64,000 nt of DNA from Candidatus Kaiserbacteria bacterium. Lineage in GTDB: Bacteria > Patescibacteriota > Minisyncoccia > Phycocordibacterales > Phycocordibacteraceae. The notes beneath the pieces were generated by a model. That model had not been told where the DNA came from. It worked only from the letters and a program-made list of their open reading frames with translations, and did not search any database. This document shows positions 26,192-59,654 of this stretch, piece by piece. The stretch is from the NCBI GenBank assembly GCA_963699165.1, contig OY969413.1:532562-596561 (forward strand), written 5' to 3'. The position numbers and the translations under genes are program-made. How positions within the stretch are numbered: position 1 is the first letter of the stretch; the number at the start of each line of letters is the position of its first letter.

Positions 26192-26193
26192 GA

Positions 26194-40472: not shown

Positions 40473-40919
40473 ATGAAAACACTTGAGGACTTTTTCGCTT
40501 CCAAAAAAGTGCGTCTAACCGCCATTGTTTTCGGCGGCATTATTCTCGCATTTCTTATTTTCCACGCGGGAGTCGAAATCGGAGAGCACGGCGGTGAATT
40601 TGACCGGCGCGGTCCGGACCGCGATTTCCGCCATCCACTCTTGCCCGGCGTCGCGCTGCCGCACGAGTTCATTCAAAACGGGCACGGGGCCGTCGGCACG
40701 ATAACCAATGTGTCGCTTCCGACCCTCACCGTTTCGACGCCGGACGGCAGAAACGAAACGATTCTCGTCAGTTCTTCAACGATGGTTCGGAGCATAGATG
40801 GTCCGGCAACCCAGCATTTTTCGGTGGGAAGTCAGATTGTCGTGCTCGGAGAGCCGGACAATCAGAACCGGATTGACGCAACCTTTATACGCATACTACC
40901 CGCAACAACAACGCCATGA
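40473..40919 (+). CDS. small single-pass membrane protein carrying one copy of a beta-rich ~60-aa module (possibly DUF5666-like)
   Basis: N-terminal TM (AIVFGGIILAFLIF), then GAVGTITNVSLPTLTVSTPDGRNETILV...SVGSQIVVLGEP...IDATFIRILP. Its stop overlaps the adaptor start. Confidence 0.5.
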   Translation: MKTLEDFFASKKVRLTAIVFGGIILAFLIFHAGVEIGEHGGEFDRRGPDRDFRHPLLPGVALPHEFIQNGHGAVGTITNVSLPTLTVSTPDGRNETILVSSSTMVRSIDGPATQHFSVGSQIVVLGEPDNQNRIDATFIRILPATTTP

Positions 40920-43467: not shown

Positions 43468-43470
43468 CCT

Positions 43471-44706
43471 ATGAAAACCCGCGACCTAATCGACGAAACA
43501 TATGCCGCGCTTTCCGCAAACAAAGTGCGGTCCGGCCTCACCGTGCTCGGCATCGTCATCGGAATCGCGTCCGTCATCGCGCTCACGGCCATCGGCCAGG
43601 GAGCGCAGGCATCGATTCAAAAATCAATTCAGTCCCTCGGCTCGAACCTTATCGAAGTAACGCCCGGTGCGGCGCGCCAAATCGGCTTCGGCGTCTCCGG
43701 CGGGCGCGGCACGGCCCGTTCGCTCACCCCCGGCGACGAAAACGCTATTGCGCAAGTCGACAACGTGGCGGCCGTCTCGGGCGAATATTCAAGCCGCTCT
43801 CAAGTCGCGGCGTCGGGCGCTAACACCAACACGACCGTCGACGGCGTTAACGCGGCCTATGCAACCATCCGCAACGTAACGATTGACCAGGGGGCTTTCA
43901 TTACCGACAGCGAATCGGCATCACTCGCAAAAGTCGCGGTCATCGGCCCGACCGTCGTCACCGATTTGTTCGGTTCAACCGCAACGGCATCCGATGCTAT
44001 TGGCCAGCACATTCGCATCAACAACATCGAGTTCACCATCATCGGCGTTACGGTAACGGCCGGAACGAGCGGTTTCAATAGTCCGGATACCTTTGTGTAT
44101 GTTCCGCTTGGCACGGCATTTCAATACTTCGCAGGAACGGGCAATCAATTCCTTTCGACCATCGACATTCAGGCGACAAGCCAAGACGCGATGACACAGG
44201 TCCAAAACGATGTCACTTCCCTTTTGCTTACGCGCCATAACATTACGGACCCGACGAAAGCCGATTTCAGCATCCTCAATCAGGCGCAAATCGTTTCGGC
44301 GGCTTCAAGCGTGACGGGAACGCTTACGGCGCTGCTTGCGGCGGTCGCGGGCATCTCGCTCGTCGTCGGCGGCATCGGCATCATGAATATGATGCTCACC
44401 ACCGTCACCGAACGCATGCGCGAAATCGGACTGCGCAAAGCCATCGGCGCAACGAAGAAAGACATCAATAATCAATTCCTCGCCGAGGCCATTGCGCTCA
44501 CGTTTACCGGAGGCGCAATCGGCATTGCGCTCGGCTGCGGGATATCCTTCATCGTAAGCGCAACGGGCGTCGAAGCCGCACAAATAACGCTCCCGTCAAT
44601 TCTGCTTGCATTCGGCGTCTCGGCGGCAATCGGCATCATCTTCGGCTGGTATCCCGCGCGCCGAGCATCAAACCTTAATCCTATCGACGCCCTGCGCTAT
44701 GAATGA
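43471..44706 (+). CDS. MacB-type ABC permease (FtsX domain)
   Basis: Paralog of the 24938-26191 protein, with the same architecture and the C-terminal NPIDALRYE. Confidence 0.9.
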   Translation: MKTRDLIDETYAALSANKVRSGLTVLGIVIGIASVIALTAIGQGAQASIQKSIQSLGSNLIEVTPGAARQIGFGVSGGRGTARSLTPGDENAIAQVDNVAAVSGEYSSRSQVAASGANTNTTVDGVNAAYATIRNVTIDQGAFITDSESASLAKVAVIGPTVVTDLFGSTATASDAIGQHIRINNIEFTIIGVTVTAGTSGFNSPDTFVYVPLGTAFQYFAGTGNQFLSTIDIQATSQDAMTQVQNDVTSLLLTRHNITDPTKADFSILNQAQIVSAASSVTGTLTALLAAVAGISLVVGGIGIMNMMLTTVTERMREIGLRKAIGATKKDINNQFLAEAIALTFTGGAIGIALGCGISFIVSATGVEAAQITLPSILLAFGVSAAIGIIFGWYPARRASNLNPIDALRYE

Positions 44707-44746: not shown

Positions 44747-45169
44747 ATGAATACAACAACTATCGGTACGGGAATCATCGCGCTTATCATCGGCATTGGC
44801 ATCGGCTACTTCGGCGGCAATGCCCTGCATCCGGCTGCGGCGCCGAGCGCGCGCGGAAGCTTTGCGGGAACGGGCGGAAGCGGTTTCGCCGGAGCGCGCG
44901 GCGGCGCGGCCGGCGGCGGATTTCTCTCGGGCACCGTTTCGGCAGCTGATTCCGGAAGCATCACGCTCAACACGCGCGACGGCAGTTCGCACGTTGTTCT
45001 CGTCACGCCGGCAACGACCGTCTCAAAGAGCGTATCCGGAGCATTGTCCGATGTGTCGGTCGGTTCAAATGTATTGATTACCGGAACGACCAACAGCGAC
45101 GGAAGCGTTACGGCGGCCGTGATTCAACTGCGTCCCGCGACACCGGCTGCGGCGCCGACTCCGCAATAA
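44747..45169 (+). CDS. small single-pass membrane protein with a Gly-rich linker and one beta-rich module
   Basis: N-terminal TM (GIIALIIGIGIGYF), Gly-rich stretch, then SGSITLNTRDGSSHVVLVTPATTVSKSVSGALSDVSVGSNVLITGTTNSDGSVTAAVI. Confidence 0.5.
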   Translation: MNTTTIGTGIIALIIGIGIGYFGGNALHPAAAPSARGSFAGTGGSGFAGARGGAAGGGFLSGTVSAADSGSITLNTRDGSSHVVLVTPATTVSKSVSGALSDVSVGSNVLITGTTNSDGSVTAAVIQLRPATPAAAPTPQ

Positions 45170-45235
45170 GCGGCGGAAAATAAAAAAGGCGGCACGGGTG
45201 CCGGCACCCGTGCCGCCTTTTTTATTTTCCGCCGC
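45170..45235. terminator. bidirectional intrinsic terminator (66-bp perfect palindrome)
   Basis: GCGGCGGAAAATAAAAAAGGCGGCACGGGTGCC|GGCACCCGTGCCGCCTTTTTTATTTTCCGCCGC between convergent genes. Confidence 0.7.
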
Positions 45236-45236
45236 G

Positions 45237-47042
45237 TTATTGACCGGACAACTGCGAGATGCGGGCCAGCGCTTGTGTGAGTTGCGATTCCAAAGATTGC
45301 ACCTGCGCCTGCAATTGGCTCAAGGTCATACTCGAAATTGCTGTTCCGCTCGGTGCGGCGACGGATGTGGCATTCGCGGCTTTTGTCGTTTCAATCTGAT
45401 TGAGCGCGGCTCGGGTCCCGGGACCGACAACACCGAGCTGAGTCAGACCATGCGCGGCCTGAAATTGCAAAACCGCAGCTTCGGTCAAAGAACCGAAATA
45501 TCCCGTCGGGGCGGCGGAAAGAAATCCTTGCGCGGCGAGCACTGTCTGAAGCTGCGTCACGTCTGTTCCCGTCGAACCGGGCACGAGATATTTTGTAAAC
45601 GTGAATGCGGGGGTTGCCGATGGTTGCGATACCATCGCTGGCACAGAAACTGTCGGTGCAACAGCCGCCGGAGCCGTCGCACCATTTACCGTCACCGTTA
45701 GCGGAGCGCACCCGCCGCCCGAAGAACAAACACTGACGGACGATACGCCTGACGCAACGCCGTACACGGTCAGCGTGCTGCCGTTCAGCGTTTCCTGCGA
45801 GACGGAATTCGTCCCGCCGGAAACAAAGTACGGCGGCGTGCCGCCGGAAATCGCGATTGTGGAATTTTGTCCCGAAAGCAGCGATAGCGCATTTTGACTG
45901 ATGGTGATATTGTTGCCGGTCGACGCGTATTGAACGGTCACGTTCACCGATGCGCATGTTCCGGTCGAGGCACACACCGAAATACTTGAAGTTCCTTGCG
46001 CGATGCCGGTCAGAGTCAGTGTTGTTCCGGAAAGATTCGCCTGCACGATGCTCGGGCTCGAATTCGAGGAAACGTAAAATTGCACGCCCGAGGGACCGTA
46101 AATATTCAGGGTCGTACTTTGACCCGTCGACACAACCGGCGCACTGCTGCTAAATGATACTGCTAAAGAACTCGAACTTCCGGCCGCTGCAACGACGATG
46201 CCGCACGATGCCATGTCGGACGAACACACCGTTATGGACGACGAACCGCTTGTGGAGCCGGTGCTGAGAGTTAGAACCGAGCCGCTGATACTCGCCTGTA
46301 TCACGCTCGAATTGGAATCGTTTTGTACCTGGTATATGCCGTTTCCTCCGCTGAGCGTAATCGGCAAATTTTGTCCGCTCACTACCATTGCGTTTGTTTG
46401 GCTCAAATTCAATTGAGAAGCGCCCGCCGGCAGGACGGTCACGTACACGCTCGGACAAGTCGTCGCATTGCCGACCTGGCAAAGCGTTACCGTCGTCGAC
46501 CCCGCCGTGTTGCCGGAGATTGTCACCTGCGTGCCGTTAATGCTGACATTTGCAATCGACGAATTCGAATTATTCGAAACATAGAGCGCGGTTGAGCCGA
46601 TGTTGCTCGCGGTTATGCTTGCGCTTGAACCGGCATCGATCACAATCGCATTTTGGCTCAATGAGAGCGCATTGGTCGAAGAAACGGTCGGCCACGCGAC
46701 GGTCGGCGATTTCGGTCCGCCCGTGCCGTTTAGAATCGCGGTTACGAGCGTACCGGAAGTAAGACCGTATGTCGCACTCGATACCGTCGTCGTAAAGTTT
46801 CCACTTCCGTCCGTCGTGCCGAGAGACACGATTTGGGCACCGGAACCGGCCTCGGTATACGACAGAAGCACACTGACGTTCGGGTCGCCGTAGACCGTTA
46901 TCTGTACATTATCGCCGCTCCCCGTTGCTAAAAGAGACAATGTCGGCGGTACGGTGGCAAAAGCAAAAACAGGAATGAACAAACCGATAAAACTTAGGAA
47001 TAAAAAGGTGAGAACCGATGTAGTTGTGAAGGTTCGTTGCAT
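45237..47042 (-). CDS. cell-surface protein: signal peptide, repeated Ig-like (Big_2-type) modules, C-terminal PG_binding_1 peptidoglycan-binding domain
   Basis: Start at MQRTF with a signal peptide. Repeated roughly 80-aa S/T-rich beta modules. C-terminal GSTGTDVTQLQTVLAAQGF...GYFGSLTEAAVLQFQAAHGLTQLGVVGPGTRAALN. Confidence 0.7.
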   Translation of the reverse strand: MQRTFTTTSVLTFLFLSFIGLFIPVFAFATVPPTLSLLATGSGDNVQITVYGDPNVSVLLSYTEAGSGAQIVSLGTTDGSGNFTTTVSSATYGLTSGTLVTAILNGTGGPKSPTVAWPTVSSTNALSLSQNAIVIDAGSSASITASNIGSTALYVSNNSNSSIANVSINGTQVTISGNTAGSTTVTLCQVGNATTCPSVYVTVLPAGASQLNLSQTNAMVVSGQNLPITLSGGNGIYQVQNDSNSSVIQASISGSVLTLSTGSTSGSSSITVCSSDMASCGIVVAAAGSSSSLAVSFSSSAPVVSTGQSTTLNIYGPSGVQFYVSSNSSPSIVQANLSGTTLTLTGIAQGTSSISVCASTGTCASVNVTVQYASTGNNITISQNALSLLSGQNSTIAISGGTPPYFVSGGTNSVSQETLNGSTLTVYGVASGVSSVSVCSSGGGCAPLTVTVNGATAPAAVAPTVSVPAMVSQPSATPAFTFTKYLVPGSTGTDVTQLQTVLAAQGFLSAAPTGYFGSLTEAAVLQFQAAHGLTQLGVVGPGTRAALNQIETTKAANATSVAAPSGTAISSMTLSQLQAQVQSLESQLTQALARISQLSGQ

Positions 47043-48460: not shown

Positions 48461-48544
48461 GAAAATATCGTAACAAATGGAACGGAAGATTGGATTAAAA
48501 AGAACCCCCGTCTCGCATAAAGCCAGGGGTTCTCTGCACTCTCG

Positions 48545-49135
48545 TCACACACCGTTACCTTTCGGTGCCATTTGCACTTTATAGTTCGGGATGATGACGT
48601 GCTGTCCCGGCGGGAAATGTGTATCCATCGAACGGGGGACGGGGCTCCAGTCGTTCTGCGAACAGTATTGCATGTTTAGCAATATCAGACGCCCAGCACT
48701 TTCAATAAAGAAAAAATTACCCCGGTCGAAGTGCAACGGAAGTCTTTCCCCGTTTTTGAATGCTTCCATGCTTCGAGTAAGCACGTAATCGGCAAGCGCT
48801 GCAGCTTGACCGAGCGTGCATAGATAATTGCGCGCCTTTAGTTGCGCGAAGATTTCTGCTTCGCACGTAGTAAAGGTGAGACCCGTCACAGCTTCGACCC
48901 ATTCTCGTGGCGTCGTCCGCATCGCTGTCGTGAACACCCTCAACGGGGTTGCGGGGGTGTCCTTTTCTTCTAACCGCGTGACACCCGCGTCAATTGGCCT
49001 AATCCACTTGAGATTCGGGTATCTTTTGCCGGAGAAGATGTCCGCTGCCATACCTCCCTGCACTGCAGGAAGGATATGGTCCATAAAGGGAACAAGTGTC
49101 ATGCGCCCTCTTTCGGGGGCAAAGGATTGCACCAT
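48545..49135 (-). CDS. hypothetical protein
   Basis: ORF; no motif recognized. Confidence 0.4.
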   Translation of the reverse strand: MVQSFAPERGRMTLVPFMDHILPAVQGGMAADIFSGKRYPNLKWIRPIDAGVTRLEEKDTPATPLRVFTTAMRTTPREWVEAVTGLTFTTCEAEIFAQLKARNYLCTLGQAAALADYVLTRSMEAFKNGERLPLHFDRGNFFFIESAGRLILLNMQYCSQNDWSPVPRSMDTHFPPGQHVIIPNYKVQMAPKGNGV

Positions 49136-49257
49136 GATGCCTTCAATTCAATTCTCTAAAAAGGAAAAGCTCCTTTCCTTATCAGAATCAAGGAGCAACT
49201 TTTGAAATTATACTCGCGAAATTAAAGTATGTCAACAAATTTTGTACGTTAGTATCG

Positions 49258-50170
49258 GGTTGTTGACACTTTTCGCGTCGACGAGTTCATTGAAAGCGCA
49301 AAAGGCGCGGTACGATTTTGGTGTTCAGACCATTTAATCGTTAGCGCCTCTTGCATGCACAAGAATACCAAATTGTTGCCGTACCAACGGCGTGAGATGT
49401 TCCGCAGATGGGGTATGGGAGCTCAAGCGACCCATTTGGCCCGAGAATACAAAGTCTCCCGAGAAACCGTATACGAGACACTTAAAGATGCCCGACTGAA
49501 CGTCTTCGAGAATCGTTCCTCGATGAATCACCGATATCGCACCATCCTGTACGGGTTCCAAAAGCTTGCTCGCACCGAAAAGCGCGTGGGAGAGAAGCTC
49601 GCCCGCAAAGCCCATCGATTGAACCGATACGAGAAATCGATACCGGGTGAAATGCTGCATCTCGATACCAAGCGCCTGCCGCTCCTGCGAGGAGAAGCCG
49701 CCGCGCAACCGAGAGAATACCTATTTGTCGCCATTGACGACTACTCTCGTACCGCCTTTGCCGATATCTTCCCCGACAAGACCGCATACTCGGCCGCCAT
49801 GTTCCTCGCCGAGAGCAAGCGAGTATTGCCGTTCCCCGTGACCGGCATCTATTCCGACAACGGGAGCGAGTACCGGGGACGACCGGATCATCCGGTGGCG
49901 GCACTCTGCAGGGAAACGGGCATGAGCCAAGCGTTCACGAAAGTGAAGCATCCCTGGACCAATGGAAAAGCGGAGCGATTCATCAAAACCCTCATGACCG
50001 AATGGCACGGGAAGACACGTTCCAATCACATCTCTCGAGCCCATCGCCGACGCTATTTGTATGCGTTTGTGGACTGGTACAACCAGACCCGCATTCACCA
50101 ATCGCTCGGAACAACTCCATTCGGAAGACTCGAGGCGTACCTAGAAAGTGTCAACAACGCGTTGACTTAG
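49258..50170 (+). mobile_element. IS481-family insertion sequence (copy B), with terminal inverted repeats different from copy A
   Basis: Terminal inverted repeats G(G/C)GTTGTTGACACTTT at 49258-49272 and the reverse complement at 50145-50160. Single transposase ORF. Confidence 0.7.
49355..50170 (+). CDS. IS481-family DDE transposase
   Basis: HTH N-terminus; rve core with DDYSRTAF, SDNGSEY and NGKAERFIKTL motifs. Confidence 0.85.
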   Translation: MHKNTKLLPYQRREMFRRWGMGAQATHLAREYKVSRETVYETLKDARLNVFENRSSMNHRYRTILYGFQKLARTEKRVGEKLARKAHRLNRYEKSIPGEMLHLDTKRLPLLRGEAAAQPREYLFVAIDDYSRTAFADIFPDKTAYSAAMFLAESKRVLPFPVTGIYSDNGSEYRGRPDHPVAALCRETGMSQAFTKVKHPWTNGKAERFIKTLMTEWHGKTRSNHISRAHRRRYLYAFVDWYNQTRIHQSLGTTPFGRLEAYLESVNNALT

Positions 50171-50245
50171 TACACAAATTTTCACCTTTCTCGAAATTAT
50201 CCTGTATTTACTTGTTTTCTTTCTCCTTAATTTCTCTACCCTGCC

Positions 50246-51145
50246 TTAGCGCGGAAGCCATTTGCGAACGCCGGCGGCGATGATTTTCTCTCTGCCCTTA
50301 AACCCGTGTGTTGCTCCGGAAATCACGTGCATCGCAAATTGCTTTGAGCGCGTATGTTTTGCCATCCAGGCGCCAATATCTTCCGCAGGGCGGTCACCGT
50401 ATTCATCTTCCTTCGCCAAAAAGACGAGCGTCGGAATCTCAATCGACTTGAATGCGGACGGATTCTTTTTCGGCGAGGCATAACAAAAAATCTCTTCCGC
50501 GCTTTCGGGCGTGAAGAGACTCACGAAGCGCTGCGCATCGATTGGGCTTACGGCAATCTCTATCGGAAGCAATTGATGCTTCTTCCCCGCTTTGATTAAC
50601 TCCCGCGCAAACTTCGTTGATTTCTCCAACTTTCCATCGGTATCAAACTTCACCGCCGCGGCATAATCGCTTAGCGGTGCAAGCAAAACGAGCCCTTTGA
50701 TATGTTTCTGATTCCCTTTTCGGCTCGCATAGTAGACCGACTTCTGGCAGCCGGTTGAATGCCCCGCGAGATAGATGTCGCGAACGCCAGCGCCTCGAAC
50801 GAAGTTTACCGCGCCTTGAATATCGTCGGCGCATTCGGTGAACACTTCATGCGCCTGACCCGCAAGCACGGAGTGCTCGCCTTTCTTCGTATTGTCGAGA
50901 CGGTATGCTTTCGTGATTTTGTCGTGTCCGCGATTGTTAAAGGTTATAACTGCAGTATCTTTGTCGACAAATGATTCCGCAAGCGGTATCCAAAACGCGG
51001 AACCGGCAAGACCATGCACAAAAATGATGGCGCGTTTCGGTTTCGCCGGACCGAACCAAAGCCCGTTCAATTTGTATTTCTTCGGCGTAACGATATTGAT
51101 GAGAAAACATGGTTTCAATTTTGCAGCAGTGATCATGCAATTCAA
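50246..51145 (-). CDS. alpha/beta hydrolase
   Basis: Nucleophile elbow GHSTG, and C-terminal Asp and His of the catalytic triad. Confidence 0.7.
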   Translation of the reverse strand: MNCMITAAKLKPCFLINIVTPKKYKLNGLWFGPAKPKRAIIFVHGLAGSAFWIPLAESFVDKDTAVITFNNRGHDKITKAYRLDNTKKGEHSVLAGQAHEVFTECADDIQGAVNFVRGAGVRDIYLAGHSTGCQKSVYYASRKGNQKHIKGLVLLAPLSDYAAAVKFDTDGKLEKSTKFARELIKAGKKHQLLPIEIAVSPIDAQRFVSLFTPESAEEIFCYASPKKNPSAFKSIEIPTLVFLAKEDEYGDRPAEDIGAWMAKHTRSKQFAMHVISGATHGFKGREKIIAAGVRKWLPR

Positions 51146-51243
51146 AAAGTTATTAGTGGGACCATCTTAACATTTCTCAATATTGCGGGAATCTTATCCT
51201 TGACAAATCGATTTACAAAGCTAACATAAGTATATGAATCGAA

Positions 51244-52305
51244 AGGCACCCAAACCCCTCAATTCGAACGACGGTTTTTTGCGCTCCTCTGAGCGCGTTG
51301 TTTCTTTTCCGCAGCATACGCCTCATCTGGCGTGAGTGAACCGAGCACATCCATGAAGCGGCGATTCATCTTTGCTTCGAGTTTCTGCACAAATCTTTTT
51401 GAATACTTTGAAATATCCGAGCTTTTCGGGATGTACCGCCGCAAGTCCTTGTTCAGATTCTCGATTGATGGCTTCTCCCATGGCGCATGCACATGACAGA
51501 AATATATCTTCACCCCAAGCACCTTCTCTAGCCGTTTGTGTTCGAGAAAGAGAATATCGTTGTCGAATGTGATGGTCTGCATCTCGGGATACCGCTTTTT
51601 CATTCTGCGAAGCGCTCGCTCCACGTTTCGCACTGACACTGGCAGGATCCGCTCCAGCAGGTTTTTGCGCACCCTGCGATCCCGCAGACCAAGAATGATG
51701 CCTTGACCGCTCTTGCCCGACACGATGAAGTCGCCCTCCATGTGACCCAATCCCCATCGCTTGTTGATTTTGCTCGGTCGTTTGTCGATCAGGCGCTTGT
51801 CGGCAATGTGTGGTTTCGATGGCCGAGAGCGTCGCCTCTTCTTGAATACCTTTGCTCGATGCGACTCGATCCGTCTGCCATACGGGCTCTTGATATATCG
51901 GCGTATAGCCGAGGATGAAGCATATCCGATATCCTTCTCGATCCGCTTCAATCGAAGTGAGATGTTTTCGGGCGACTGATCGTCGAAGAGATGCGCCTCG
52001 ATGAACTTCCGGAGCTTCGGGTCGAGAGCAATCATCTTGCCGACCGCTCGGCTGTATTTCCTTCGTACGTATGAAATGTGATGCGCATATGCAGCATCAT
52101 ACGGCCGTCCCTTCCTCTTCTTTTGCGTCTCGTACCATATGACACTCTTCGGTCGGTCGAGTGCATCTCCGACATCTTGCAAAGAGTATCCCTTCGCTAA
52201 CAGTATCTGTATTTCGTCTCGTTCGGACTTTGTGAAGTGCGCACCGCCGGAGGTTTTTTCATTCGCTCAATGTATCAAACGTTCGAATTCAAAAGACCAG
52301 TCGCC
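51244..52305 (-). mobile_element. IS30-family insertion sequence, copy 1 (about 1062 bp), flanked by AA/AA dinucleotides
   Basis: Boundaries defined by where identity with copy 2 (57792-58854) stops: ends GGCGACTGG... and ...GGGTGCCT, with imperfect terminal inverted repeats. Confidence 0.75.
51259..52182 (-). CDS. IS30-family DDE transposase
   Basis: GHMEGDFIV, TFDNDILF and HAPWEKPSIENLN correspond to the IS30 D-D-E regions. Differs from copy 2 at 2 of 307 residues. Confidence 0.85.
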   Translation of the reverse strand: MQDVGDALDRPKSVIWYETQKKRKGRPYDAAYAHHISYVRRKYSRAVGKMIALDPKLRKFIEAHLFDDQSPENISLRLKRIEKDIGYASSSAIRRYIKSPYGRRIESHRAKVFKKRRRSRPSKPHIADKRLIDKRPSKINKRWGLGHMEGDFIVSGKSGQGIILGLRDRRVRKNLLERILPVSVRNVERALRRMKKRYPEMQTITFDNDILFLEHKRLEKVLGVKIYFCHVHAPWEKPSIENLNKDLRRYIPKSSDISKYSKRFVQKLEAKMNRRFMDVLGSLTPDEAYAAEKKQRAQRSAKNRRSN

Positions 52306-52409
52306 AAATTGCGGATTTATGCGCGAAATGATCGAGGCTTCGTTCCTCGGTGTTTCAGTTTGCGCATAGCCGCGATTTTTCTTCTCCTCACTAGCAACCT
52401 GTAAAGAAA

Positions 52410-52440
52410 AACCTCGGCTCTGCGGAAGCCGAGGTTTTCT
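52410..52440 (+). terminator. intrinsic terminator
   Basis: AACCTCGGCT-CTGCGGA-AGCCGAGGTT followed by TTTTCT. Confidence 0.55.
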
Positions 52441-52480
52441 CGTCTATCGCGGCAGGGCATCTTCCTTAAAGGAGAACTGC

Positions 52481-53083
52481 ATGAACGGCAACCCGAGTAC
52501 CGAACGAGTCGTATTCCTCGACGGCAACCGCCTGTATCTGCGGCCGCACTGCGCATCGGACGTCCCCCTTCTGGTTCGCTGGATGAACGATCCTAACATT
52601 CGGATATTCGTAAACAGGCGGTATCCGCTCGGTGCAAAAGAGGAAGAACGGTGGATTGAACGTCTCGCGGAATTAAAAAACGACATTGTCCTCATGATTG
52701 TTCTGAAAGGTCAAACGCCCGCGGATGATAGACCGATAGGCAACATCGGTTTGCATAATATCGAACTCGAAAACGGGATTGCGACGACGGGAGCGGTCAT
52801 CGGCGAAAAGGAATGTTGGGGCAAGGGGTACGGAACCGAAGCGAAAATGATTCTACTCAATCATGCCTTCAATACGCTAAATTTGCGGAAGATCTATTCC
52901 CGCGTTCTCGCCCTTAACCCGCGTAGCCGCAGATACAGCGAAAAATGCGGCTATACGCTCATCGCGACGCTTCCCGACAAACATTTCCGCGACGGACGCT
53001 TCGTCGATGAACTCGTTCTTGAAGTCAACGCAGATACATGGCGGATGCTTTGGGAGGAAACGAAAGAAAGATTCCTGCCGTAG
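52481..53083 (+). CDS. GNAT N-acetyltransferase (RimJ/RimL-like)
   Basis: GNAT motifs A/B (IGNIGLHNIE, WGKGYGTEA, YSRVLALNPRSRRYSEKCGY). Confidence 0.85.
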   Translation: MNGNPSTERVVFLDGNRLYLRPHCASDVPLLVRWMNDPNIRIFVNRRYPLGAKEEERWIERLAELKNDIVLMIVLKGQTPADDRPIGNIGLHNIELENGIATTGAVIGEKECWGKGYGTEAKMILLNHAFNTLNLRKIYSRVLALNPRSRRYSEKCGYTLIATLPDKHFRDGRFVDELVLEVNADTWRMLWEETKERFLP

Positions 53084-53090
53084 CAACCGC

Positions 53091-53122
53091 AGTCGCCGCC
53101 TTCTTAGGCGGCGACTTTTACT
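53091..53122. terminator. bidirectional terminator between the convergent GNAT and MarR genes
   Basis: AGTCGCCGCC-TTCTTAG-GCGGCGACT followed by TTTT. Confidence 0.55.
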
Positions 53123-53140
53123 CTTTATCTGAAATACCGG

Positions 53141-53605
53141 CTACTGCCCCGTCTCGGTTTCCTTAATGCGCTCGAGCGCGCTTGTGAATGCGGCAAGTTC
53201 GGAAGGGGTCAGACCGTTGAAAAGTCCGCCCAACACTTTTCTGCCGCGCACCATGGCTTTTTTCAAATCGTTCTTCCCTTCTTGCGTGAGCAGGAGACGC
53301 GAGGTGCGTTTGTCTTTTTTGTCGGCGTGACACTCGACGCGGCCGCTCTTCACGAGGTCGCCGATGAGCGATGTGGTCGAAGGCGCGGTGATGGAAAGAT
53401 ACTCTGCAACGTCTTTCATTTTCGGTTCGGGATGCTCCGAAATAAATTTCATCGTTTCAACCCAGAGCCACGTCGACGGATCGAGCTTTGCGCCCTTCGG
53501 AAGCTGCTTCGCGAGTTCGGTTCGCATAACGCGGCGTATAACAAAAAGCAGCGATACGACGCGCGAGATGTCTTCAAATGAATGCTTGTGTGAGCGTGAA
53601 GTCAT
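53141..53605 (-). CDS. MarR-family transcriptional regulator
   Basis: Winged-helix region (ISEHPEPKMKDVAEYLSITAPSTTSLIGDLVKSGRVECHADKKDKR). Start placed at MTSRS, downstream of the MFS stop. Confidence 0.8.
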   Translation of the reverse strand: MTSRSHKHSFEDISRVVSLLFVIRRVMRTELAKQLPKGAKLDPSTWLWVETMKFISEHPEPKMKDVAEYLSITAPSTTSLIGDLVKSGRVECHADKKDKRTSRLLLTQEGKNDLKKAMVRGRKVLGGLFNGLTPSELAAFTSALERIKETETGQ

Positions 53606-53612
53606 AGCTGTA

Positions 53613-55142
53613 TTATCCACCCGCGGCGGCTTCGGCGAGCATCTCGGGCGGGATATCTTTTTTTTCTTTGCGGGTGACGCGCAAAAGCAGGAGCGCGACA
53701 AGCGCACCGAAAATCATCGCCGCCGCCGCATCTTTGAAAACGGTTCCGTACGCGAGCAGGTCGGCTTTCATAATGATTAACTGTTGCGCCTCCGCGAGGA
53801 TGGTCGGCGTCGAACCGTTGATGTGCGAATTCTGCGCAACGACAAGCACATTTGCATTTGTCGCATTTTCAAGCACCGTTCCAAAGATTGCAATGCCGAA
53901 CGCTCCGCCGATGTTGCGGGTGAGATTCAAAAGTCCGGATGACATGCCGATTTCATTCATCGGCACGGCCGACGTGGCGGCGGTAGTAAGCGGCGCCATG
54001 CCGAGGCCGAGACCCGCTCCGAACAAAACGAGCGGTAAAACGAAACTCATCGATATCATCGTCGGGTCAAGATGCACGAGCTGGTACAGGCCGAGCGCCG
54101 ACAGCGCCATGCCGAAGGAAACCGTGTAGCGCGGATTGATTGAAAGCGCGAGCCGCGCTCCGAGCGGCGCAAAAATCGGCATCGCAAGCCCCATCGGCAC
54201 GAACAAGTATCCGCTTTGCGTCGCCGTATACTGCAAAAACGTCTGCGCGAATACCGGCAACAGGAAGAGCGCGCCCATCATGCCGCCGAAAGAAATAAAC
54301 GAAACAATGAGCACCGACACGATGACCGGATTTTTGAAAAATTTGAAGTCGATGATGGGGTGCGTATGGCGCGTTTCCCATTGGTACACGAGCAATCCGA
54401 ATACCACGGTGCAGATGTAGCAGATGACGCTCGCATTCGAGGTCCAGCCCCACGTCTGCCCGCGGTCGACGACAAGCACCAAACTCGAAATCGCACCCGA
54501 GAGAAGTACCGCGCCAAACCAGTCGAATGTCCCGCGCTCGCCCGGACGGTCATGCGGCAAGAAAAGCAGCGTCATGATAAGACCCGCGATGCCGATGGGC
54601 AGATTGATGTAAAAAACGGAACGCCATGAAAAATTATCGACGAGATATCCTCCGAGCAAAGGGCCGAGCACGGCGGATACCGCGAATGAAGACGACCAGA
54701 TGCCGAGCGCCTGCGCGCGCGCCTTCGGGTCGCTAAACGATTTTGCGATAAGCGACATTGCGGTCGGATACACGGCTGCGCCGACGAGCCCTTGCACGAT
54801 GCGAAAGAATACGAGCGAATCGAAATTCCACGCAAGTCCGGCAAACATCGAAATGATGATGAACCCGACGAAGCTCCAAAGATAAATGATGCGGTTGCCG
54901 AAAAGATCGCCGAGTTTCCCGAAGACCGGCACGAAAATCGCATTGCTGATGATGTAGGCGGTCGAAATCCATGCGGCGGTGGACACCGTGATGCTGAAGT
55001 CATTGATGATTTTCGGCACGGCGAGGCCGACCACCGTGCGGTCGAGCCCGATAAGCAGCGTGCCGACCATCACCGTGGTCAGAACGAGCCACGGATGCCC
55101 CGTGAGTCGATGCGCTTGAGGCCGTGCGGCTAGTTCTGCCAT
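53613..55142 (-). CDS. MFS transporter, DHA2 (EmrB/QacA) 14-TM drug:H+ antiporter type
   Basis: 14 predicted TM helices, the MFS motif A region, 509 aa. Confidence 0.85.
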   Translation of the reverse strand: MAELAARPQAHRLTGHPWLVLTTVMVGTLLIGLDRTVVGLAVPKIINDFSITVSTAAWISTAYIISNAIFVPVFGKLGDLFGNRIIYLWSFVGFIIISMFAGLAWNFDSLVFFRIVQGLVGAAVYPTAMSLIAKSFSDPKARAQALGIWSSSFAVSAVLGPLLGGYLVDNFSWRSVFYINLPIGIAGLIMTLLFLPHDRPGERGTFDWFGAVLLSGAISSLVLVVDRGQTWGWTSNASVICYICTVVFGLLVYQWETRHTHPIIDFKFFKNPVIVSVLIVSFISFGGMMGALFLLPVFAQTFLQYTATQSGYLFVPMGLAMPIFAPLGARLALSINPRYTVSFGMALSALGLYQLVHLDPTMISMSFVLPLVLFGAGLGLGMAPLTTAATSAVPMNEIGMSSGLLNLTRNIGGAFGIAIFGTVLENATNANVLVVAQNSHINGSTPTILAEAQQLIIMKADLLAYGTVFKDAAAAMIFGALVALLLLRVTRKEKKDIPPEMLAEAAAGG

Positions 55143-55155
55143 GGTGAGGCTAACG

Positions 55156-55815
55156 TTACTTCGTATAAATCCACATGCGCGCCGACATGCCGTTTTTCAA
55201 TTGCGGGTAGGTCGTAGTATCGAAGCGCACTTTGATATCAAACTGCTGCGTCTGACGCTGGTCCGAAATGTTGAACACGATGCCCGACTGGTTCGACGAT
55301 GGCGCGATTTCGTCCACGACGCCGTTGAATTTCTCCGACCCGAACGCATCGACCGTAAAAGTCACCGGGTCGCCGACTTTAATTTGCGCAAGACCTTTAT
55401 TTTCATCGATTTTCCCGACCACGCGCAATTGCGACGGGTCAATCATTTCCACAACCGGCTGACCGGGAGCGATTTGCGCGCCGATGGTGTTGTTTACCTG
55501 CACGACGAGTCCGGCGACTTTCGTTTTCACGACTTCCGTTCCGACAAGAGCGACCGGAGAGTTTGCGGGAAGCATATCGCCTTCGTTTGCATAAATTGCA
55601 TTCAAGCGTCCCGCCGAAATCGGCGAGAGGTCGATGAGCGGCGCCGAAATCGAAGACGTATCGATGGCGACTTCTTTTGCCGAAAAAATGAAGTATGCGG
55701 CGATGCCGGCGGCGGCAAGAATAATGACGCCGATGCTACCGAAAATCGCAAGGCGGCGGCGCATCTCCGGCGTAAATACTTTTGCTTTTTCGTGTGTGTT
55801 TGCGTGCGTGGTCAT
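55156..55815 (-). CDS. short HlyD/EmrA-like adaptor (no extended coiled coil)
   Basis: N-terminal TM, then biotinyl/lipoyl-like and beta-barrel segments; about 219 aa. Confidence 0.7.
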   Translation of the reverse strand: MTTHANTHEKAKVFTPEMRRRLAIFGSIGVIILAAAGIAAYFIFSAKEVAIDTSSISAPLIDLSPISAGRLNAIYANEGDMLPANSPVALVGTEVVKTKVAGLVVQVNNTIGAQIAPGQPVVEMIDPSQLRVVGKIDENKGLAQIKVGDPVTFTVDAFGSEKFNGVVDEIAPSSNQSGIVFNISDQRQTQQFDIKVRFDTTTYPQLKNGMSARMWIYTK

Positions 55816-55834
55816 GGTAGTTTTTTCAATGCGA

Positions 55835-57367
55835 TTATTGCGCGGCCTGCGCTCCGAACGTCAGCACGCTGTCCCCCGCGGCAAGTCCGGAAACGATTTC
55901 CGTCATGCCCGCGGCACTTCCTATGCCGGTCGTCACGGGCGTCTTCACGGGATTTTTTCCGTTTTCGACATACACGAATTGCCGGCTGCCGTTTGTTATG
56001 ATGGCGCTCGTCGGCACCTGAAGCGCCGCCGCTTTGGTCGCGGTAATGATGCGCAGGTTCGCGGAAAGTCCCGGCTTCAATCGCGGGTCGTTTTGCGTAA
56101 AGGTTACCGTAATGCCGTAAGACGAGACGCCTCCGTTTGTGTCTGCGGAAGGATTGACGGTCGTAACTGTTGCGGGGAACGTTACGCCCGGATACGAATC
56201 AAACGTCGCATCGACCGTGTCGTTCATTTTTATTTTCGCAATGTCGGTTTCGGAAACCTCCGCATCGGCCTCGTATTTCCCGTCCGCAATCATCGAGACA
56301 AGCGGTGAGCCCGGCACGACCGTCTCGCCAAGATTGGCGTTCTGCGCGGTGATGGTGCCGGACACCGGTGCGACGATGACCGTTTGCGATGCGGCGGCCT
56401 GCGCAGCGGCAAGCGAGGCCTTTGCGGCATCTACTGCGGCCTGCTGCGCATCGATGTCGTTTTGCGTTGCACCCGCCTTTGCGAGCGTAAGAGCGCCGTT
56501 CGCCGATTTGTACGCCGTGTCTGCGCCGATAAGCGCGGAAAGCGAACCCGATACGTTCAAGCGCGCGACATTCGTAGTGGTCTGGTATCCGACAAGGGAC
56601 TGTGCCGTGACGGAACCGCCCGGCTGCGTCTCTGCGAGCGCCGTCGTGAGGTCGTTAAGAAATGCCGAAATAGTACTCAGATTCGCCTCCGATTGCGCGA
56701 CGACGCTTTCGGGATTATTCCCGGCGGCGGCAAGCGAAGCATTCCATGAGGAAAAAAGCGGCTCGATTGCGATTCGTTCCGTCTGCAATTTATTTACGAG
56801 CGTCGCGTCCGGAACCGTGACAATCAACTGCGCGGTCGAATTTCTCGGATTGCTGAATACCTGGTCGGCTTTCGCATGCACGGCATCATCGGCATTTGTG
56901 TAGGCCGACTGCAATGCGCTCGAAAGCGCGTTCTGCGCCTGCGTTACGTTTGTCTGATTTATCGCAAGCTGCTCGGGACGCGTGCCGGCCACAAGCGAAG
57001 CGAGTTTCGCCTCCTGCGCTTCGAGATTCGCCTGTGCGAGTGCGACGCCCGCCTCCTGAGTCGAACCGTCGAGCACGATGAGCGACTGTCCCGCACCCAC
57101 ATGGTCGCCGACCTGAACATTGATTCCGACAACGCGGCCGGGTGTCTGAAACGCTAGGTCGGTGCTATGCGCGGCCTTCACTGCGCCGGTCACATCCACC
57201 TCCTCGGTAATCGGGGCGAGCGTCACACGGGCGTAACTGCCGGACGGCGAGACCGTGGTGGCATACCACGCAATCCCGACAATGCCGGCACCGATAACAA
57301 GCGCGCCGCCAACGGCGACTGCGGGTTTCGAAAGAAATGCAAGAAAAGAGACGAATCGTTCGCGCAT
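55835..57367 (-). CDS. HlyD-family adaptor with a long coiled coil (paralog 3)
   Basis: Same architecture as, and clear similarity to, the 26895-28460 and 40916-42733 products. Confidence 0.85.
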   Translation of the reverse strand: MRERFVSFLAFLSKPAVAVGGALVIGAGIVGIAWYATTVSPSGSYARVTLAPITEEVDVTGAVKAAHSTDLAFQTPGRVVGINVQVGDHVGAGQSLIVLDGSTQEAGVALAQANLEAQEAKLASLVAGTRPEQLAINQTNVTQAQNALSSALQSAYTNADDAVHAKADQVFSNPRNSTAQLIVTVPDATLVNKLQTERIAIEPLFSSWNASLAAAGNNPESVVAQSEANLSTISAFLNDLTTALAETQPGGSVTAQSLVGYQTTTNVARLNVSGSLSALIGADTAYKSANGALTLAKAGATQNDIDAQQAAVDAAKASLAAAQAAASQTVIVAPVSGTITAQNANLGETVVPGSPLVSMIADGKYEADAEVSETDIAKIKMNDTVDATFDSYPGVTFPATVTTVNPSADTNGGVSSYGITVTFTQNDPRLKPGLSANLRIITATKAAALQVPTSAIITNGSRQFVYVENGKNPVKTPVTTGIGSAAGMTEIVSGLAAGDSVLTFGAQAAQ

Positions 57368-57420
57368 GAATTCTGTGTTAATTAGTTAGGTAGTCGAAGT
57401 ATATCATACCACACTTTTAA

Positions 57421-57789
57421 ATGCAAGCCGCGCACCCGGAAGGTCTGACTTTCCGTGGGCGCGGCTGCATAAGTTCAGATACATTTGGCAGTCCTCATAA
57501 CCGAGGATATATGCGCATCAGAAGCAATTTCAGGGGTACGAAGGGCTGGTTGAGCATGTGGGAAAGGACGATACGATTGCGGCATATGCGGAAACCAAAG
57601 GAAGTCGACAGACGGGTGAAGATATTGGGATTCTGGGACATGCACGGGACGGAGGCCGCATACGACGCCTTTGGCACCTCGGAGCGCACCTTGTATCGCT
57701 GGAAGGAGGAACTCAAAGCCCACGAGGGCCGCATTGATGCACTTGACCCGAAGAGCACTGCGCCGAAGGCGCGTCGAAGGAGGACTGTT
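57421..57789 (+). pseudogene. IS481 transposase, N-terminal HTH fragment (disrupted)
   Basis: See the copy C element. The reading frame runs into the IS30 sequence. Confidence 0.65.
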
Positions 57790-57791
57790 CT

Positions 57792-58854
57792 GGCGACTGG
57801 TCTTTTGAATTCGAACGTTTGATACATTGAGCGAATGAAAAAACCTCCGGCGGTGCGCACTTCACAAAGTCCGAACGAGACGAAATACAGATACTGTTAG
57901 CGAAGGGATACTCTTTGCACGATGTCGGAGATGCACTCGACCGACCGAAGAGTGTCATATGGTACGAGACGCAAAAGAAGAGGAAGGGACGGCCGTATGA
58001 TGCTGCATATGCGCATCACATTTCATACGTACGAAGGAAACACAGCCGAGCGGTCGGCAAGATGATTGCTCTCGACCCGAAGCTCCGGAAGTTCATCGAG
58101 GCGCATCTCTTCGACGATCAGTCGCCCGAAAACATCTCACTTCGATTGAAGCGGATCGAGAAGGATATCGGATATGCTTCATCCTCGGCTATACGCCGAT
58201 ATATCAAGAGCCCGTATGGCAGACGGATCGAGTCGCATCGAGCAAAGTTATTCAAGAAGAGGCGACGCTCTCGGCCATCGAAACCACACATTGCCGACAA
58301 GCGCCTGATCGACAAACGACCGAGCAAAATCAACAAGCGATGGGGATTGGGTCACATGGAGGGCGACTTCATCGTGTCGGGCAAGAGCGGTCAAGGCATC
58401 ATTCTTGGTCTGCGGGATCGCAGGGTGCGCAAAAACCTGCTGGAGCGGATCCTGCCAGTGTCAGTGCGAAACGTGGAGCGAGCGCTTCGCAGAATGAAAA
58501 AGCGGTATCCCGAGATGCAGACCATCACATTCGACAACGATATTCTCTTTCTCGAACACAAACGGCTAGAGAAGGTGCTTGGGGTGAAGATATATTTCTG
58601 TCATGTGCATGCGCCATGGGAGAAGCCATCAATCGAGAATCTGAACAAGGACTTGCGGCGGTACATCCCGAAAAGCTCGGATATTTCAAAGTATTCAAAA
58701 AGATTTGTGCAGAAACTCGAAGCAAAGATGAATCGCCGCTTCATGGATGTGCTCGGTTCACTCACGCCAGATGAGGCGTATGCTGCGGAAAAGAAACAAC
58801 GCGCTCAGAGGAGCGCAAAAAACCGTCGTTCGAATTGAGGGGTTTGGGTGCCTC
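57792..58854 (+). mobile_element. IS30-family insertion sequence, copy 2, flanked by CT/CT
   Basis: Near-identical to copy 1 in inverted orientation. CT dinucleotide at 57790-57791 and at 58855-58856. Confidence 0.75.
57915..58838 (+). CDS. IS30-family DDE transposase
   Basis: 307 aa, 2 substitutions relative to the 51259-52182 product. Confidence 0.85.
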   Translation: MHDVGDALDRPKSVIWYETQKKRKGRPYDAAYAHHISYVRRKHSRAVGKMIALDPKLRKFIEAHLFDDQSPENISLRLKRIEKDIGYASSSAIRRYIKSPYGRRIESHRAKLFKKRRRSRPSKPHIADKRLIDKRPSKINKRWGLGHMEGDFIVSGKSGQGIILGLRDRRVRKNLLERILPVSVRNVERALRRMKKRYPEMQTITFDNDILFLEHKRLEKVLGVKIYFCHVHAPWEKPSIENLNKDLRRYIPKSSDISKYSKRFVQKLEAKMNRRFMDVLGSLTPDEAYAAEKKQRAQRSAKNRRSN

Positions 58855-58856
58855 TG

Positions 58857-59654
58857 CCCGAGGTCGAGGATTTCATCATCCGCGAACGACAGGCGCATCC
58901 CCGGCTTGGGAAAGCAAAGCTTGCCGTTCTCCTGCGCGAAGAAGGGTACTCCGTGTCGGAGTCATACGTTGGGCGGGTCATTCTGGATTTGAAGAACCGC
59001 GGTCTGCTCCCGCAGCAGAGCCGGCTCTCGTTCCACGCACGTACGGGCAATCACACGGAAACACCGCAGAAACGCCGTACCAAGCTTCGCCGCACCGGCA
59101 AGCGCGGCATGGAGCTCGATACCGTCGTCCGCTTCATCGACGGCGTGAAGCGGTACGTCCTCACGGCAGTGGACGTGGAGCGGAAGTTCGCCTTTGCGGG
59201 CGCGTATACGAACCACTCGTCGAGAAGCGCGGACGACTTCCTTCGCCGAGTCATCGAGGTCTGTCCCTTCGATATCGACGAGTTGCAGACCGACAACGGG
59301 AGCGAGTTCGCCAAACACTTCGAGGATGCCTGTGCCGAACTCGGGCTCACGCACTTTCACACCCGCCCCCGCACTCCCAAGATGAATGCCCACGTCGAAC
59401 GATTCAATCGCACCGTCTCCGAGGACTTCATCATGCTGAATCGGGGCCTGCTGCGGGACGATATTCATTCCTTCAATCTGAAGCTTGTCGACTGGCTGAT
59501 CTGGTACAACACCAAACGCCCGCACCAGTCGCTCGGCATGGTGTCCCCCTTGCGGTATATTGTGTGTACATTAACCGTCGGGGACTGCCAAAAGTACTGG
59601 ACGCGTACAGCGGCTTGTCGGCCTATTTCCCGGGAATGTATAATGCCCTCATGA
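58857..59654 (+). pseudogene. IS481 transposase, C-terminal rve-core fragment (disrupted)
   Basis: DTVVRFIDG...TDNGSEFAKHF...VERFNRTVSEDF...KRPHQSLG. It lacks the HTH region, which lies upstream of the IS30 insertion. Confidence 0.65.

Follow-up and report, generated by a model that had tools for sequence, protein, structure and literature searches.

Insertion sequences of the IS30 family, exemplified by E. coli IS30 and ISApl1, are thought to use a plain single ORF, and their target duplications fall in the range of 2–3 bp. The copy-out-paste-in model of transposition uses an IRL–IRR junction. A known arrangement of two such elements is Tn6330 (ISApl1-mcr-1-ISApl1), for which the birth model invokes two separate insertions of an IS30-family element that come to flank a chromosomal gene, with their own duplications at the inside ends (PMC5821093). 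ISApl1 makes a 2-bp target duplication, and in the 31 complete catalogued copies of Tn6330 it is directly repeated (PMC5821093). A literature search returned no relevant description of insertion sequences in Patescibacteria.

Here we analyze a 64-kb stretch of DNA (hereafter, the window) from a Patescibacteria genome of about 1 Mb, in which two IS30-family copies bracket genes for an efflux pump. The initial annotation read this layout as a composite-transposon-like resistance module. Our analysis indicates that the locus is very probably an inherited efflux operon near which two IS30 copies inserted separately, and not a mobile cassette.

Two inverted copies of an IS30-family element

A repeat search of the window detected a 1063-nt inverted repeat with arms at 51244–52306 and 57791–58853. 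The true ends of the element, GGCGACT...GGGTGCC, are common to 12 related metagenome copies and correct the extents first given (51244–52305 and 57792–58854). The terminal inverted repeats are 26 bp long and imperfect, with 16 of 26 positions identical. The features of the two copies are as follows.

51242..51244 (left) and 52306–52308 (right), target-site duplication AAA of copy 1, read from the sequence
51245..52305, minus strand, IS30-family copy 1 (1061 bp), intergenic, between the divergent alpha/beta-hydrolase and GNAT genes
51259..52266, minus strand, copy 1 transposase frame, open from 52266, first ATG/GTG/TTG being TTG at 52182 (307 aa); mirrored from copy 2
57789..57791 (left) and 58853–58855 (right), target-site duplication TCT of copy 2, read from the sequence
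57792..58852, plus strand, IS30-family copy 2 (1061 bp), nested inside the element IS481b
57831..58838, plus strand, copy 2 transposase frame, 335 codons open, first canonical start TTG at 57915

These are the only two copies of the element in the window, and the inverted repeat bears out their description as a near-identical inverted pair. Base-by-base comparison shows three mismatches (51849/58248, 52056/58041 and 52177/57920; 99.7% identity), and the transposases differ at three residues (Q2H, Y43H and V112L) instead of the two of 307 counted initially. Copy 1 has the outgroup state at all three variable sites, and we infer that every difference, each of them nonsynonymous, is derived in copy 2. 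Window positions 52135–57589 are matched at 100% by another public assembly of this organism (JBAPNL010000035.1), which verifies the inner junction of copy 1 and its copy-specific base.

That each copy has a flank of its own, pointing to independent insertions, had been recognized from the start, and this part stands; the duplications are 3 bp long (AAA and TCT), not 2 bp (AA and CT). The same length is seen at three independent insertions of the element, the third being TCC in L029, L030, L032 and L037. No empty-site allele of copy 1 was found in related loci, where its hydrolase and GNAT flanks have no counterparts. It was likewise absent from a metagenome scan with the IS30 left end, which returned four contigs of one already-seen lineage.

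The transposase matches the IS30 profile NF033563 at 168.2 bits (cutoff 80) over profile positions 2–264 of 267. In the open frame the catalytic triad is D179, D235 and E269, 55 residues separating the two aspartates and 33 the second aspartate from the glutamate, and a Pfam search places HTH_38 at residues 10–46. The profile score and the DD(33)E motif uphold the family assignment. Like E. coli IS30 and ISApl1, the window element has a single DDE transposase, with HTH_38 in the N-terminal part of the open frame and 55 residues between the aspartates, and its size (about 1.06 kb), terminal inverted repeats and 3-bp duplication also agree with the family. It differs in its host, a Patescibacteria genome, in an HTH-coding N-terminus that lacks an in-frame ATG, GTG or TTG, and in giving no match to Pfam rve (PF00665) at E <= 0.001. 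The element has no assigned name in the resources used, and exact-protein look-ups of both 307-aa ORFs returned no match. For a 98% identical copy the public gene call is P0012 (258 aa), gene callers having picked other starts.

Copy 2 interrupts an IS481-like element

Copy 2 lies within a second insertion sequence, IS481b.

57461..57466 (left) and 59610–59615 (right), probable 5–6 bp target duplication GCGGC(T) of IS481b
57467..57791, plus strand, left part of IS481b, transposase N-terminus; 5' third of an IS481-like element that IS30 copy 2 interrupts
58856..59609, plus strand, right part of IS481b, transposase C-terminus; the ORF extends to 59654, past the element end

Deleting 57792–58855 (copy 2 and one TCT) restores a single IS481-like ORF. 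Over 327 aa this ORF matches P0145 at 100%; P0145 is a 347-aa transposase with recorded rve and rve_3 domains, whose gene lies intact at another place on the same contig (993,452 bp). The native length of IS481b is about 1.08 kb, its boundaries being drawn only from the inverted repeat, the GCGGC(T) duplication and the C-terminal divergence of P0145 from the window ORF. The length, the duplication size and the rve/rve_3 domains of P0145 are like those of the IS481 family, and NF033577 (IS481) is the best NCBIfam match of the interrupted transposase. Its score (182.7 bits) lies under the curated cutoff of 224, and for this reason we call the element only IS481-like.

The bracketed genes include a probable efflux operon

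Between the two IS30 copies, and upstream of the 5' third of IS481b, are the following features.

52481..53083, plus strand, GNAT acetyltransferase, 200 aa (PF13302, 91 bits)
53091..53116, GC-rich hairpin in the gap where GNAT and MarR converge, stem of 11 pairs, 8 of them G-C, then a T-rich tail
53141..53605, minus strand, MarR-family regulator, 154 aa in the public gene call (L001), last operon gene (PF12802, 27.6 bits, just over cutoff)
53613..55142, minus strand, DHA2-family (EmrB-type) MFS efflux permease, 509 aa (TIGR00711, 337.7 bits; cutoff 230.2)
55156..55815, minus strand, short membrane-anchored HlyD-type adaptor, 219 aa, without a long coiled coil (PF13437, PF16576)
55835..57367, minus strand, long HlyD/YknX-type adaptor, 510 aa, first operon gene (TIGR01730, 170 bits; cutoff 94.9)

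Pfam and NCBIfam profiles agree with all five gene identities proposed earlier, a list that was correct as far as it went and omitted the IS481-like fragment at 57467–57791. The hairpin is probably a terminator shared by GNAT and MarR. The GNAT protein has only sub-threshold NCBIfam matches to PseH and AAC(6'). Barrel and C-terminal domains of the YknX type are recorded for the long adaptor, as in YknX-type adaptors of monoderm bacteria, and it passes only the generic RND_mfp model. As had been suggested, it is paralogous to two adaptors elsewhere in the window, at 26895–28460 (35% identity, E 1e-73) and 40916–42733 (27%, E 3e-35), each with an ABC ATPase gene and a gene for a MacB_PCD/FtsX permease after it.

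The operon resembles EmrAB-type pumps in having a DHA2 permease above the subfamily cutoff, neighboring HlyD-type adaptors and a MarR-family regulator. Unlike EmrAB, it has two adaptors instead of one, and neither reaches the EmrA/EmrK cutoff (TIGR00998, 390.8 bits): the short adaptor scores 45 bits, with EmrA/EmrK nonetheless its best NCBIfam match, and the long adaptor 64. The MarR gene is the last of the operon and not a divergent gene upstream of it, and, in contrast to EmrAB-TolC, the window operon includes no gene for an outer-membrane channel. Patescibacteria are generally believed to have no outer membrane. Judging by family membership, the pump would most likely be a MarR-controlled, proton-driven exporter, in which the two membrane-anchored adaptors would form an extracytoplasmic conduit.

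The operon is conserved in related species

Another 19 Patescibacteria species representatives show the same arrangement of the long HlyD, short HlyD and MFS genes, in both order and orientation, and in 11 of these loci MarR is directly downstream of the MFS gene. The permease is 75–85% identical in 12 related species, and L021, a second contig of one of these 12 genomes, matches it at 88% over a partial alignment. The short adaptor is kept beside the MFS gene in 23 related loci at 42–79% identity. The related loci are all from other species than the window, and none of the operon loci in the 19 species representatives has an IS30 or IS481 match. In L005 and L008 the adjacent MacAB-like operon is also retained, convergent with MarR; L008 is collinear with window positions 39.4–45.2 kb plus the operon, and L005 has the same neighbors. 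The chromosomal position is therefore conserved too. Clusters at 90% identity for the MFS protein, the long adaptor and GNAT contain only sequences of this organism, and neither these clusters nor the related loci revealed a copy of the segment elsewhere.

The composition of the operon is also unremarkable. Its GC content is 0.568, compared with 0.538 for the window (ORF standard deviation 0.035), and its tetranucleotide distance of 0.203 is below the 95th percentile of the null (0.214). GC, GC3 and tetranucleotide frequencies are all within the window's own spread. A compositional difference from the flanking DNA is thus absent, and a module first regarded as unusual for such a genome has the same gene order in 19 related species representatives. 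Relatives carry the efflux genes at the equivalent site free of IS30. Both outcomes, this one and the ordinary composition, had been named in advance by the initial annotation itself as contrary to its proposal.

This genome is set apart by a block that separates MarR from a cupin gene and comprises GNAT, IS30 copy 1, the hydrolase gene, another IS481-like element and a hypothetical gene. Beyond copy 1, this block includes:

48461..51241, remaining part of the window-specific block that separates the cupin gene from MarR
48545–49135, minus strand, hypothetical gene, 196 aa
49355–50170, plus strand, second IS481-like transposase (Pfam/NCBIfam), unrelated to IS481b
50246–51145, minus strand, alpha/beta hydrolase (Pfam/NCBIfam)

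None of the 26 related loci has any of the last three genes, or a GNAT orthologue beside MarR. In L003, L007 and L013, MarR directly adjoins the cupin gene. GC skew rises locally over 52–59 kb. We considered this rise as a sign of inversion and rejected it: the duplications and synteny speak against it, and the skew tracks the IS30 copies and membrane-protein composition.

Origin of the arrangement

Two copies of one insertion sequence around a set of genes are one mark of a composite transposon, and this feature is present. A shared outer duplication is absent, since the outer flanks are AAA (51242–51244) at one end and TCT (58853–58855) at the other. The passenger genes are neither missing from the site in relatives nor found elsewhere with the same element, and their composition does not differ from that of the host. 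Together, the separate duplications, the ancestral operon and its ordinary composition contradict the composite-transposon interpretation. That the efflux genes were acquired horizontally along with the IS30 copies, as true cargo, is scarcely tenable: IS copies on both sides and an IS-rich setting (five transposase genes in 64 kb) are what such cargo might leave, yet all three observations just named, including neighbors conserved without IS in related species, already contradict it.

The possibility that two independent insertions have only just created a unit able to move the operon deserves more attention. The present state corresponds to the starting state of the Tn6330 model (PMC5821093), and the high identity of the copies would suit it. 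As in Tn6330 (ISApl1-mcr-1-pap2-ISApl1), two IS30-family copies surround chromosomal genes and have their own ancestral duplications at the inside ends. Nevertheless, such a nascent transposon is improbable. The window copies are inverted, whereas ISApl1 is in direct repeat in the 31 complete Tn6330 copies (PMC5821093), and both outer ends are right ends, from which an IRL–IRR junction could not form. Unlike in Tn6330, the outer ends lack a shared duplication, meaning that no move as a unit has taken place, and the flanked genes are ancestral at the site with no mobilized copy found. Moreover, copy 2 has three nonsynonymous changes.

The inverted pair, about 1 kb of nearly identical sequence, would be an ample substrate for homologous recombination, and the segment might be invertible or deletable, with both orientations present in the population. 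We regard this as highly unlikely. Inverted repeats yield inversion, not deletion; the orientation at the inner junction of copy 1 is the same in both assemblies; and, with the MacAB-like operon as reference, the segment has the orientation seen in L005 and L008. Matching duplications at each copy and the intact polarity of the IS481b halves point to the original orientation, and thus to no net inversion. An assembly artefact in which one IS30 copy was placed twice is practically inconceivable. Insertion sequences are a common source of misassembly, and related copies on short metagenome contigs often have mismatched flanks, but here three positions distinguish the copies, the 3-bp duplications match on the two sides of each, the ORF broken by copy 2 is cut cleanly, and an independent contig spans the inner junction of copy 1.

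The history that we favor, an inherited operon with two separate insertions, would run as follows. In this Minisyncoccia (Patescibacteria) lineage, the MarR/DHA2-MFS/short-HlyD/long-HlyD operon would be chromosomal and passed on vertically. A single active IS30-family element would have placed two copies near it in separate events, as each copy has its own target duplication. Copy 1 would have entered the region between the hydrolase and GNAT genes, and copy 2 the IS481-like transposase gene already sitting in the divergent promoter region of the operon and sppA, each insertion producing a 3-bp duplication. By analogy with the family, transposition would have been of the IS30-type copy-out-paste-in kind, through a circular or dimer intermediate. 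The bracketed segment would never have moved as a unit, and any inversions of it since the insertions would be even in number.

A possible case of recoding in the IS30 element

The start of the transposase frame has an unexpected structure. Upstream of HTH_38 there is no in-frame ATG, GTG or TTG; a TGA comes just before the conserved start position, which reads GCG. Copy 2 has an ATG at 57835, out of frame, with a run of six A residues (A6, 57838–57843) after it. The pattern extends to four diverged relatives (70–87% amino acid identity). In all five elements, none of the 21–28 codons for the initial part of the HTH is an ATG, GTG or TTG; at the position of the GTG, TTG or ATG of other homologues there is a GCG or ACG, whose preceding codon is a stop; and the sole nearby ATG is one base out of frame, immediately 5' of an A-run (A4–A7). 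More distant IS30 lineages have the same frame layout with other A-run lengths. The dN/dS ratio of the N-terminal region is 0.1–0.4, with dS saturated; as judged from sequence comparison, the HTH region is kept under purifying selection.

Several simpler accounts were rejected. Reading TGA as sense (code 25) disagrees with 21 of 53 long window ORFs, including the IS30 transposase, that end in TGA, and in one related IS30 lineage TAA replaces the TGA before the start position. A sequencing error in A6 is unlikely, as the run is present in both copies, in the second assembly and in the 98% identical metagenome copy L035. Extension of the ORF over a circle junction is excluded by an in-frame stop within the element.

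The missing canonical start in a conserved region suggests recoding or near-cognate initiation. Tentatively, and with somewhat less than even confidence, we propose that this IS30 clade may make its full-length, HTH-bearing transposase solely by non-standard decoding. Transposase output would be very low under any of three routes: near-cognate initiation, slippage during transcription, or a -1 slip on the A-run just after initiation. The recoding surveys searched mention neither IS30 nor such control of it.

Implications

An efflux operon flanked by insertion sequences should not be taken as a mobile resistance cassette before relatives are checked. Here the pump is very probably a lineage-typical inherited operon, and the IS30 insertions reflect ordinary insertion-sequence activity. 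The locus offers a clean, datable record of that activity in a Patescibacteria genome of about 1 Mb, including a nested insertion of one element in another (copy 2 in IS481b) whose empty site survives in the same genome (P0145). If programmed recoding or near-cognate initiation does operate in this element, it would represent a new way of throttling the transposase in the IS30 family.

Two separate insertions of one IS30-family element

A repeat search of the window returned a single long inverted repeat, whose arms (51244-52306 and 57791-58853) differ at three positions in a base-by-base comparison (51849/58248, 52056/58041 and 52177/57920). The near-identical inverted IS30 pair described in the initial annotation is therefore real, but the count of 2 differing residues out of 307 given there should be three (Q2H, Y43H and V112L, in ORFs read from the first TTG). 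Self-comparison revealed no third IS30 copy within the 64-kb window. The family assignment also held: the open frame scores 168 bits against the IS30 transposase model of NCBIfam (cutoff 80), contains an HTH_38 domain and has catalytic residues D179, D235 and E269, whose spacings of 55 and 33 are those of an IS30-type DD(33)E motif. The element is a new, unnamed IS30-family member in the genome of an organism that public records class as a Minisyncoccia bacterium (Patescibacteria). The following features lie between its two copies.

Features between copy 1 and copy 2
52481-53083, plus strand, GNAT
53091-53116, strong hairpin
53141-53605, minus strand, MarR
53613-55142, minus strand, DHA2 MFS
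55156-55815, minus strand, HlyD adaptor, 219 aa
55835-57367, minus strand, HlyD adaptor, 510 aa
Native upstream DNA of about 100 bp, separating the long adaptor gene from the IS481-like element IS481b
Left 325 bp of IS481b, next to copy 2

Since 12 related copies on metagenome contigs have the same termini (GGCGACT... and ...GGGTGCC) and unrelated flanks, the element can be delimited to 1061 bp (51245-52305 and 57792-58852). Each window copy is bordered by a perfect 3-bp direct repeat, AAA for copy 1 and TCT for copy 2, and a third independent insertion (L029/L030/L032/L037) by TCC. Separate duplications had been correctly recognized at the outset, but the 2-bp flanks proposed then (AA and CT) were one base short. 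Because the outer flanks of the pair are unlike (AAA versus TCT), the 7.6-kb unit was never inserted here whole. On several short metagenome contigs with a related IS30 (L031, L033, L034, L035, L036, L039, L028 and L040), left and right flanks do not match, for example, ATG and TCC in L031 or TCC and ATG in L036; the assembly may have joined different insertion sites in these contigs, or real inter-copy recombination may have occurred.

Copy 2 is nested in an IS481-like element

One rve-type transposase is split between the ORFs at 57421-57822 and 58848-59654. Removal of 57792-58855 (the IS30 element plus one TCT) fuses both halves in frame; searched against a database, the reconstructed protein retrieved P0145 (347 aa), which is identical across all 327 query residues (100%) and continuous through the junction (...RRRTVLPEVEDF...). 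P0145 is encoded on a 993,452-bp contig together with the MFS, adaptor, GNAT and cupin proteins of the window; therefore, the same genome has an uninterrupted copy of IS481b, an empty-site control for copy 2. Judged by transposase sequence, the host element is IS481-like; its best match is NF033577, with a score of 182.7 bits that does not reach the cutoff (224).

Based on the inverted repeat, the direct repeat and the point of divergence between P0145 and the window ORF, IS481b extends over approximately 57467-59609 and has a native length of 1079 bp. The sequence GCGGC(T), directly repeated at 57461-57466 and 59610-59615, is probably its target duplication. IS481b occupies the intergenic region that separates two divergent genes, the long adaptor gene (start 57367) and sppA (start 59651). 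The intact P0145 on the same contig, coupled with the 73 member sequences of its 90% cluster, indicates that IS481b itself is multi-copy and widespread. A GC-rich hairpin with a 20-bp stem (57426-57466; AGCCGCGCACCCGGAAGGTC / GACTTTCCGTGGGCGCGGCT) abuts the left end of IS481b, and the IS481b duplication falls inside its 3' arm; this hairpin could be a target signal or a terminator.

Insertion history and mobility

One element thus inserted twice, separately, and copy 2 went into an IS481b that was already in place. Copy 1 carries the outgroup base (L035, L028, L029 and L040) at each of the three variable sites, so all three changes, each of them nonsynonymous, are derived in copy 2. We infer that copy 2 in its present state did not give rise to copy 1. 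The divergence of 0.28% suggests that both insertions are recent. JBAPNL010000035.1 (5455 bp), a contig from a second assembly that is public for this organism, matches window positions 52135-57589 at 100%; it spans the inner junction of copy 1, carries the copy 1 diagnostic base and ends ~120 bp inside IS481b, as expected, since short-read assemblies break in multi-copy elements.

The segment between the copies appears to have undergone no net inversion, because the duplications match, the IS481b halves are correctly polarised and orientation is conserved relative to the MacAB-like operon (adaptor, ABC ATPase and MacB-type permease genes, convergent with MarR). In Tn6330, a catalogued IS30-family composite, the copies are directly repeated, and the copy-out-paste-in model for the family bridges left end to right end (PMC5821093). 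In contrast, the window copies are inverted, which leaves a right end on either outer side, and moving the whole IS30-bounded unit would therefore be mechanistically unfavoured.

The start region of the IS30 transposase

In both copies the transposase frame is open from 57831 (mirror 52266) and codes for the first part of the HTH (ANEKTSGGAHFTKSERDEIQILLAKGYSL). There is no in-frame ATG, GTG or TTG in the HTH-coding N-terminus (57819-57915 in copy 2, mirror 52182-52278 in copy 1), the first such codon of the frame being a TTG at 57915 (mirror 52182), in the middle of the HTH domain. The same start-less layout is present in L028, L029, L040, L041-L047, L049 and L052-L054. Full-length homologues have GTG (L048/P0010), TTG (P0001) or ATG at the conserved start position, which is GCG in the window element and L028 and ACG in L029, L040 and L041-L047, in every case with a TGA or TAA immediately before it; this genome uses TGA as an ordinary stop codon. 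Within AAT-GAA-AAA there is an ATG that is out of frame by one base and followed by an A-run (A6 in the window, A5 in L028 and L029, A4 in L040 and A7 in L041), such that the main frame is reachable by a -1 slip after ATG-AAA. L049, a sixth lineage, requires a +1 shift on A6 instead. The second assembly and a metagenome copy of 98% identity have the same A6 run as the two window copies.

The 28 upstream codons are under purifying selection in five lineages (dN/dS 0.1-0.4, with dS saturated), indicating that they have long been translated. Among the 120 closest database homologues, the gene call begins at the conserved N-terminus in only 17. In the IS1 and IS3 families, the tetramers A_AA.A and A_AA.G and the heptamers A_AA.A_AA.C are established sites of -1 frameshifting (PMC4066793); IS30 goes unmentioned in that study and in a survey that covers transcriptional slippage among IS elements. 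The layout may reflect frameshifting, transcriptional slippage, near-cognate initiation or an N-truncated product.

The efflux operon and its genomic setting

From the families of its proteins, the operon is predicted to encode a DHA2 exporter that is driven by protons, controlled by MarR and equipped with two adaptors anchored in the membrane. The long adaptor has YknX-type domains and, as had been proposed, is paralogous to the two adaptors preceding ABC-ATPase/MacB-type permease pairs at 24938-28460 and 40916-44706. Both adaptors score below the EmrA/EmrK cutoff, and the operon contains no channel gene. The predicted pump would act in the manner of the EmrAB- or YknX-type exporters that are assisted by adaptors in monoderm cells; it does not count as an established EmrAB-TolC member.

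Compared with relatives in which the cupin gene and MarR are adjacent, the window has an additional 4.7-kb block separating the two genes (48461-53140). It comprises a hypothetical 196-aa gene, an IS481-like transposase gene (IS481a, 49355-50170), an alpha/beta hydrolase (DUF1749 / Hydrolase_4), copy 1 and GNAT, the only gene of the block enclosed by the IS30 pair. Its non-IS genes have no counterpart in any of 26 related loci, and it looks like a local variable spot. The 90% cluster of IS481a has 36 members, which come from several Patescibacteria MAGs. Both IS481a and a further rve-type (IS481/IS3-like) transposase gene at 9333-10217 are unrelated to IS481b at the DNA level. Altogether, the 64-kb window contains five transposase genes, in a genome of approximately 1 Mb. 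An 80-bp near-perfect palindrome at 45164-45242 (GCGGCGGAAAATAAAAAAGGCGGCACGGGTGCC / GGCACCCGTGCCGCCTTTTTTATTTTCCGCCGC), between convergent genes, is most simply a bidirectional terminator.

The 26 loci came from a scan for MFS relatives with one genome per species, and window proteins were mapped onto them for gene order. Almost all are Patescibacteria MAGs; MFS identity is 75-85% in 12 species and reaches 88% across a partial match in L021, a second contig of one of these 12 genomes. The pair of short HlyD and DHA2 MFS also occurs, at 47-50% identity, in MAGs with archaeal labels (L018, L019 and L022; uncultured archaeon LFW-170_1 and LFW-165_1, and a Woesearchaeota MAG), which could represent mislabelling, a binning error or cross-domain sharing.

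The bracketing IS30 copies had led the initial annotation to propose a composite-transposon-like resistance module. However, the long HlyD, short HlyD and MFS genes keep the same order and strand in 19 of the 26 loci, the short HlyD and MFS pair is found in 23, and MarR is directly downstream in 11, while IS30 and IS481 queries had zero matches in these loci. Conservation extends to the position. Directly after the operon, L008 has homologues of window genes 44747, 43471, 42730, 40916, 40473 and 39470, ordered and oriented relative to one another as in the window; L005 has the same neighbours, and in L003, L007 and L013 the cupin gene comes directly after MarR. Nor is the operon set apart from the window by composition: its GC content is 0.568 versus 0.538 (ORF sd 0.035), its GC3 0.65-0.71 versus a mean of 0.617 (sd 0.073), and its tetranucleotide distance from the remaining window sequence, 0.203, is inside the null range (95th percentile 0.214). 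Conserved order and position without IS, together with ordinary composition, do not support the view of the operon as transposon cargo; these are the two results that the initial annotation had named as counting against its proposal. The efflux operon is ancestral, and it merely attracted insertions nearby.
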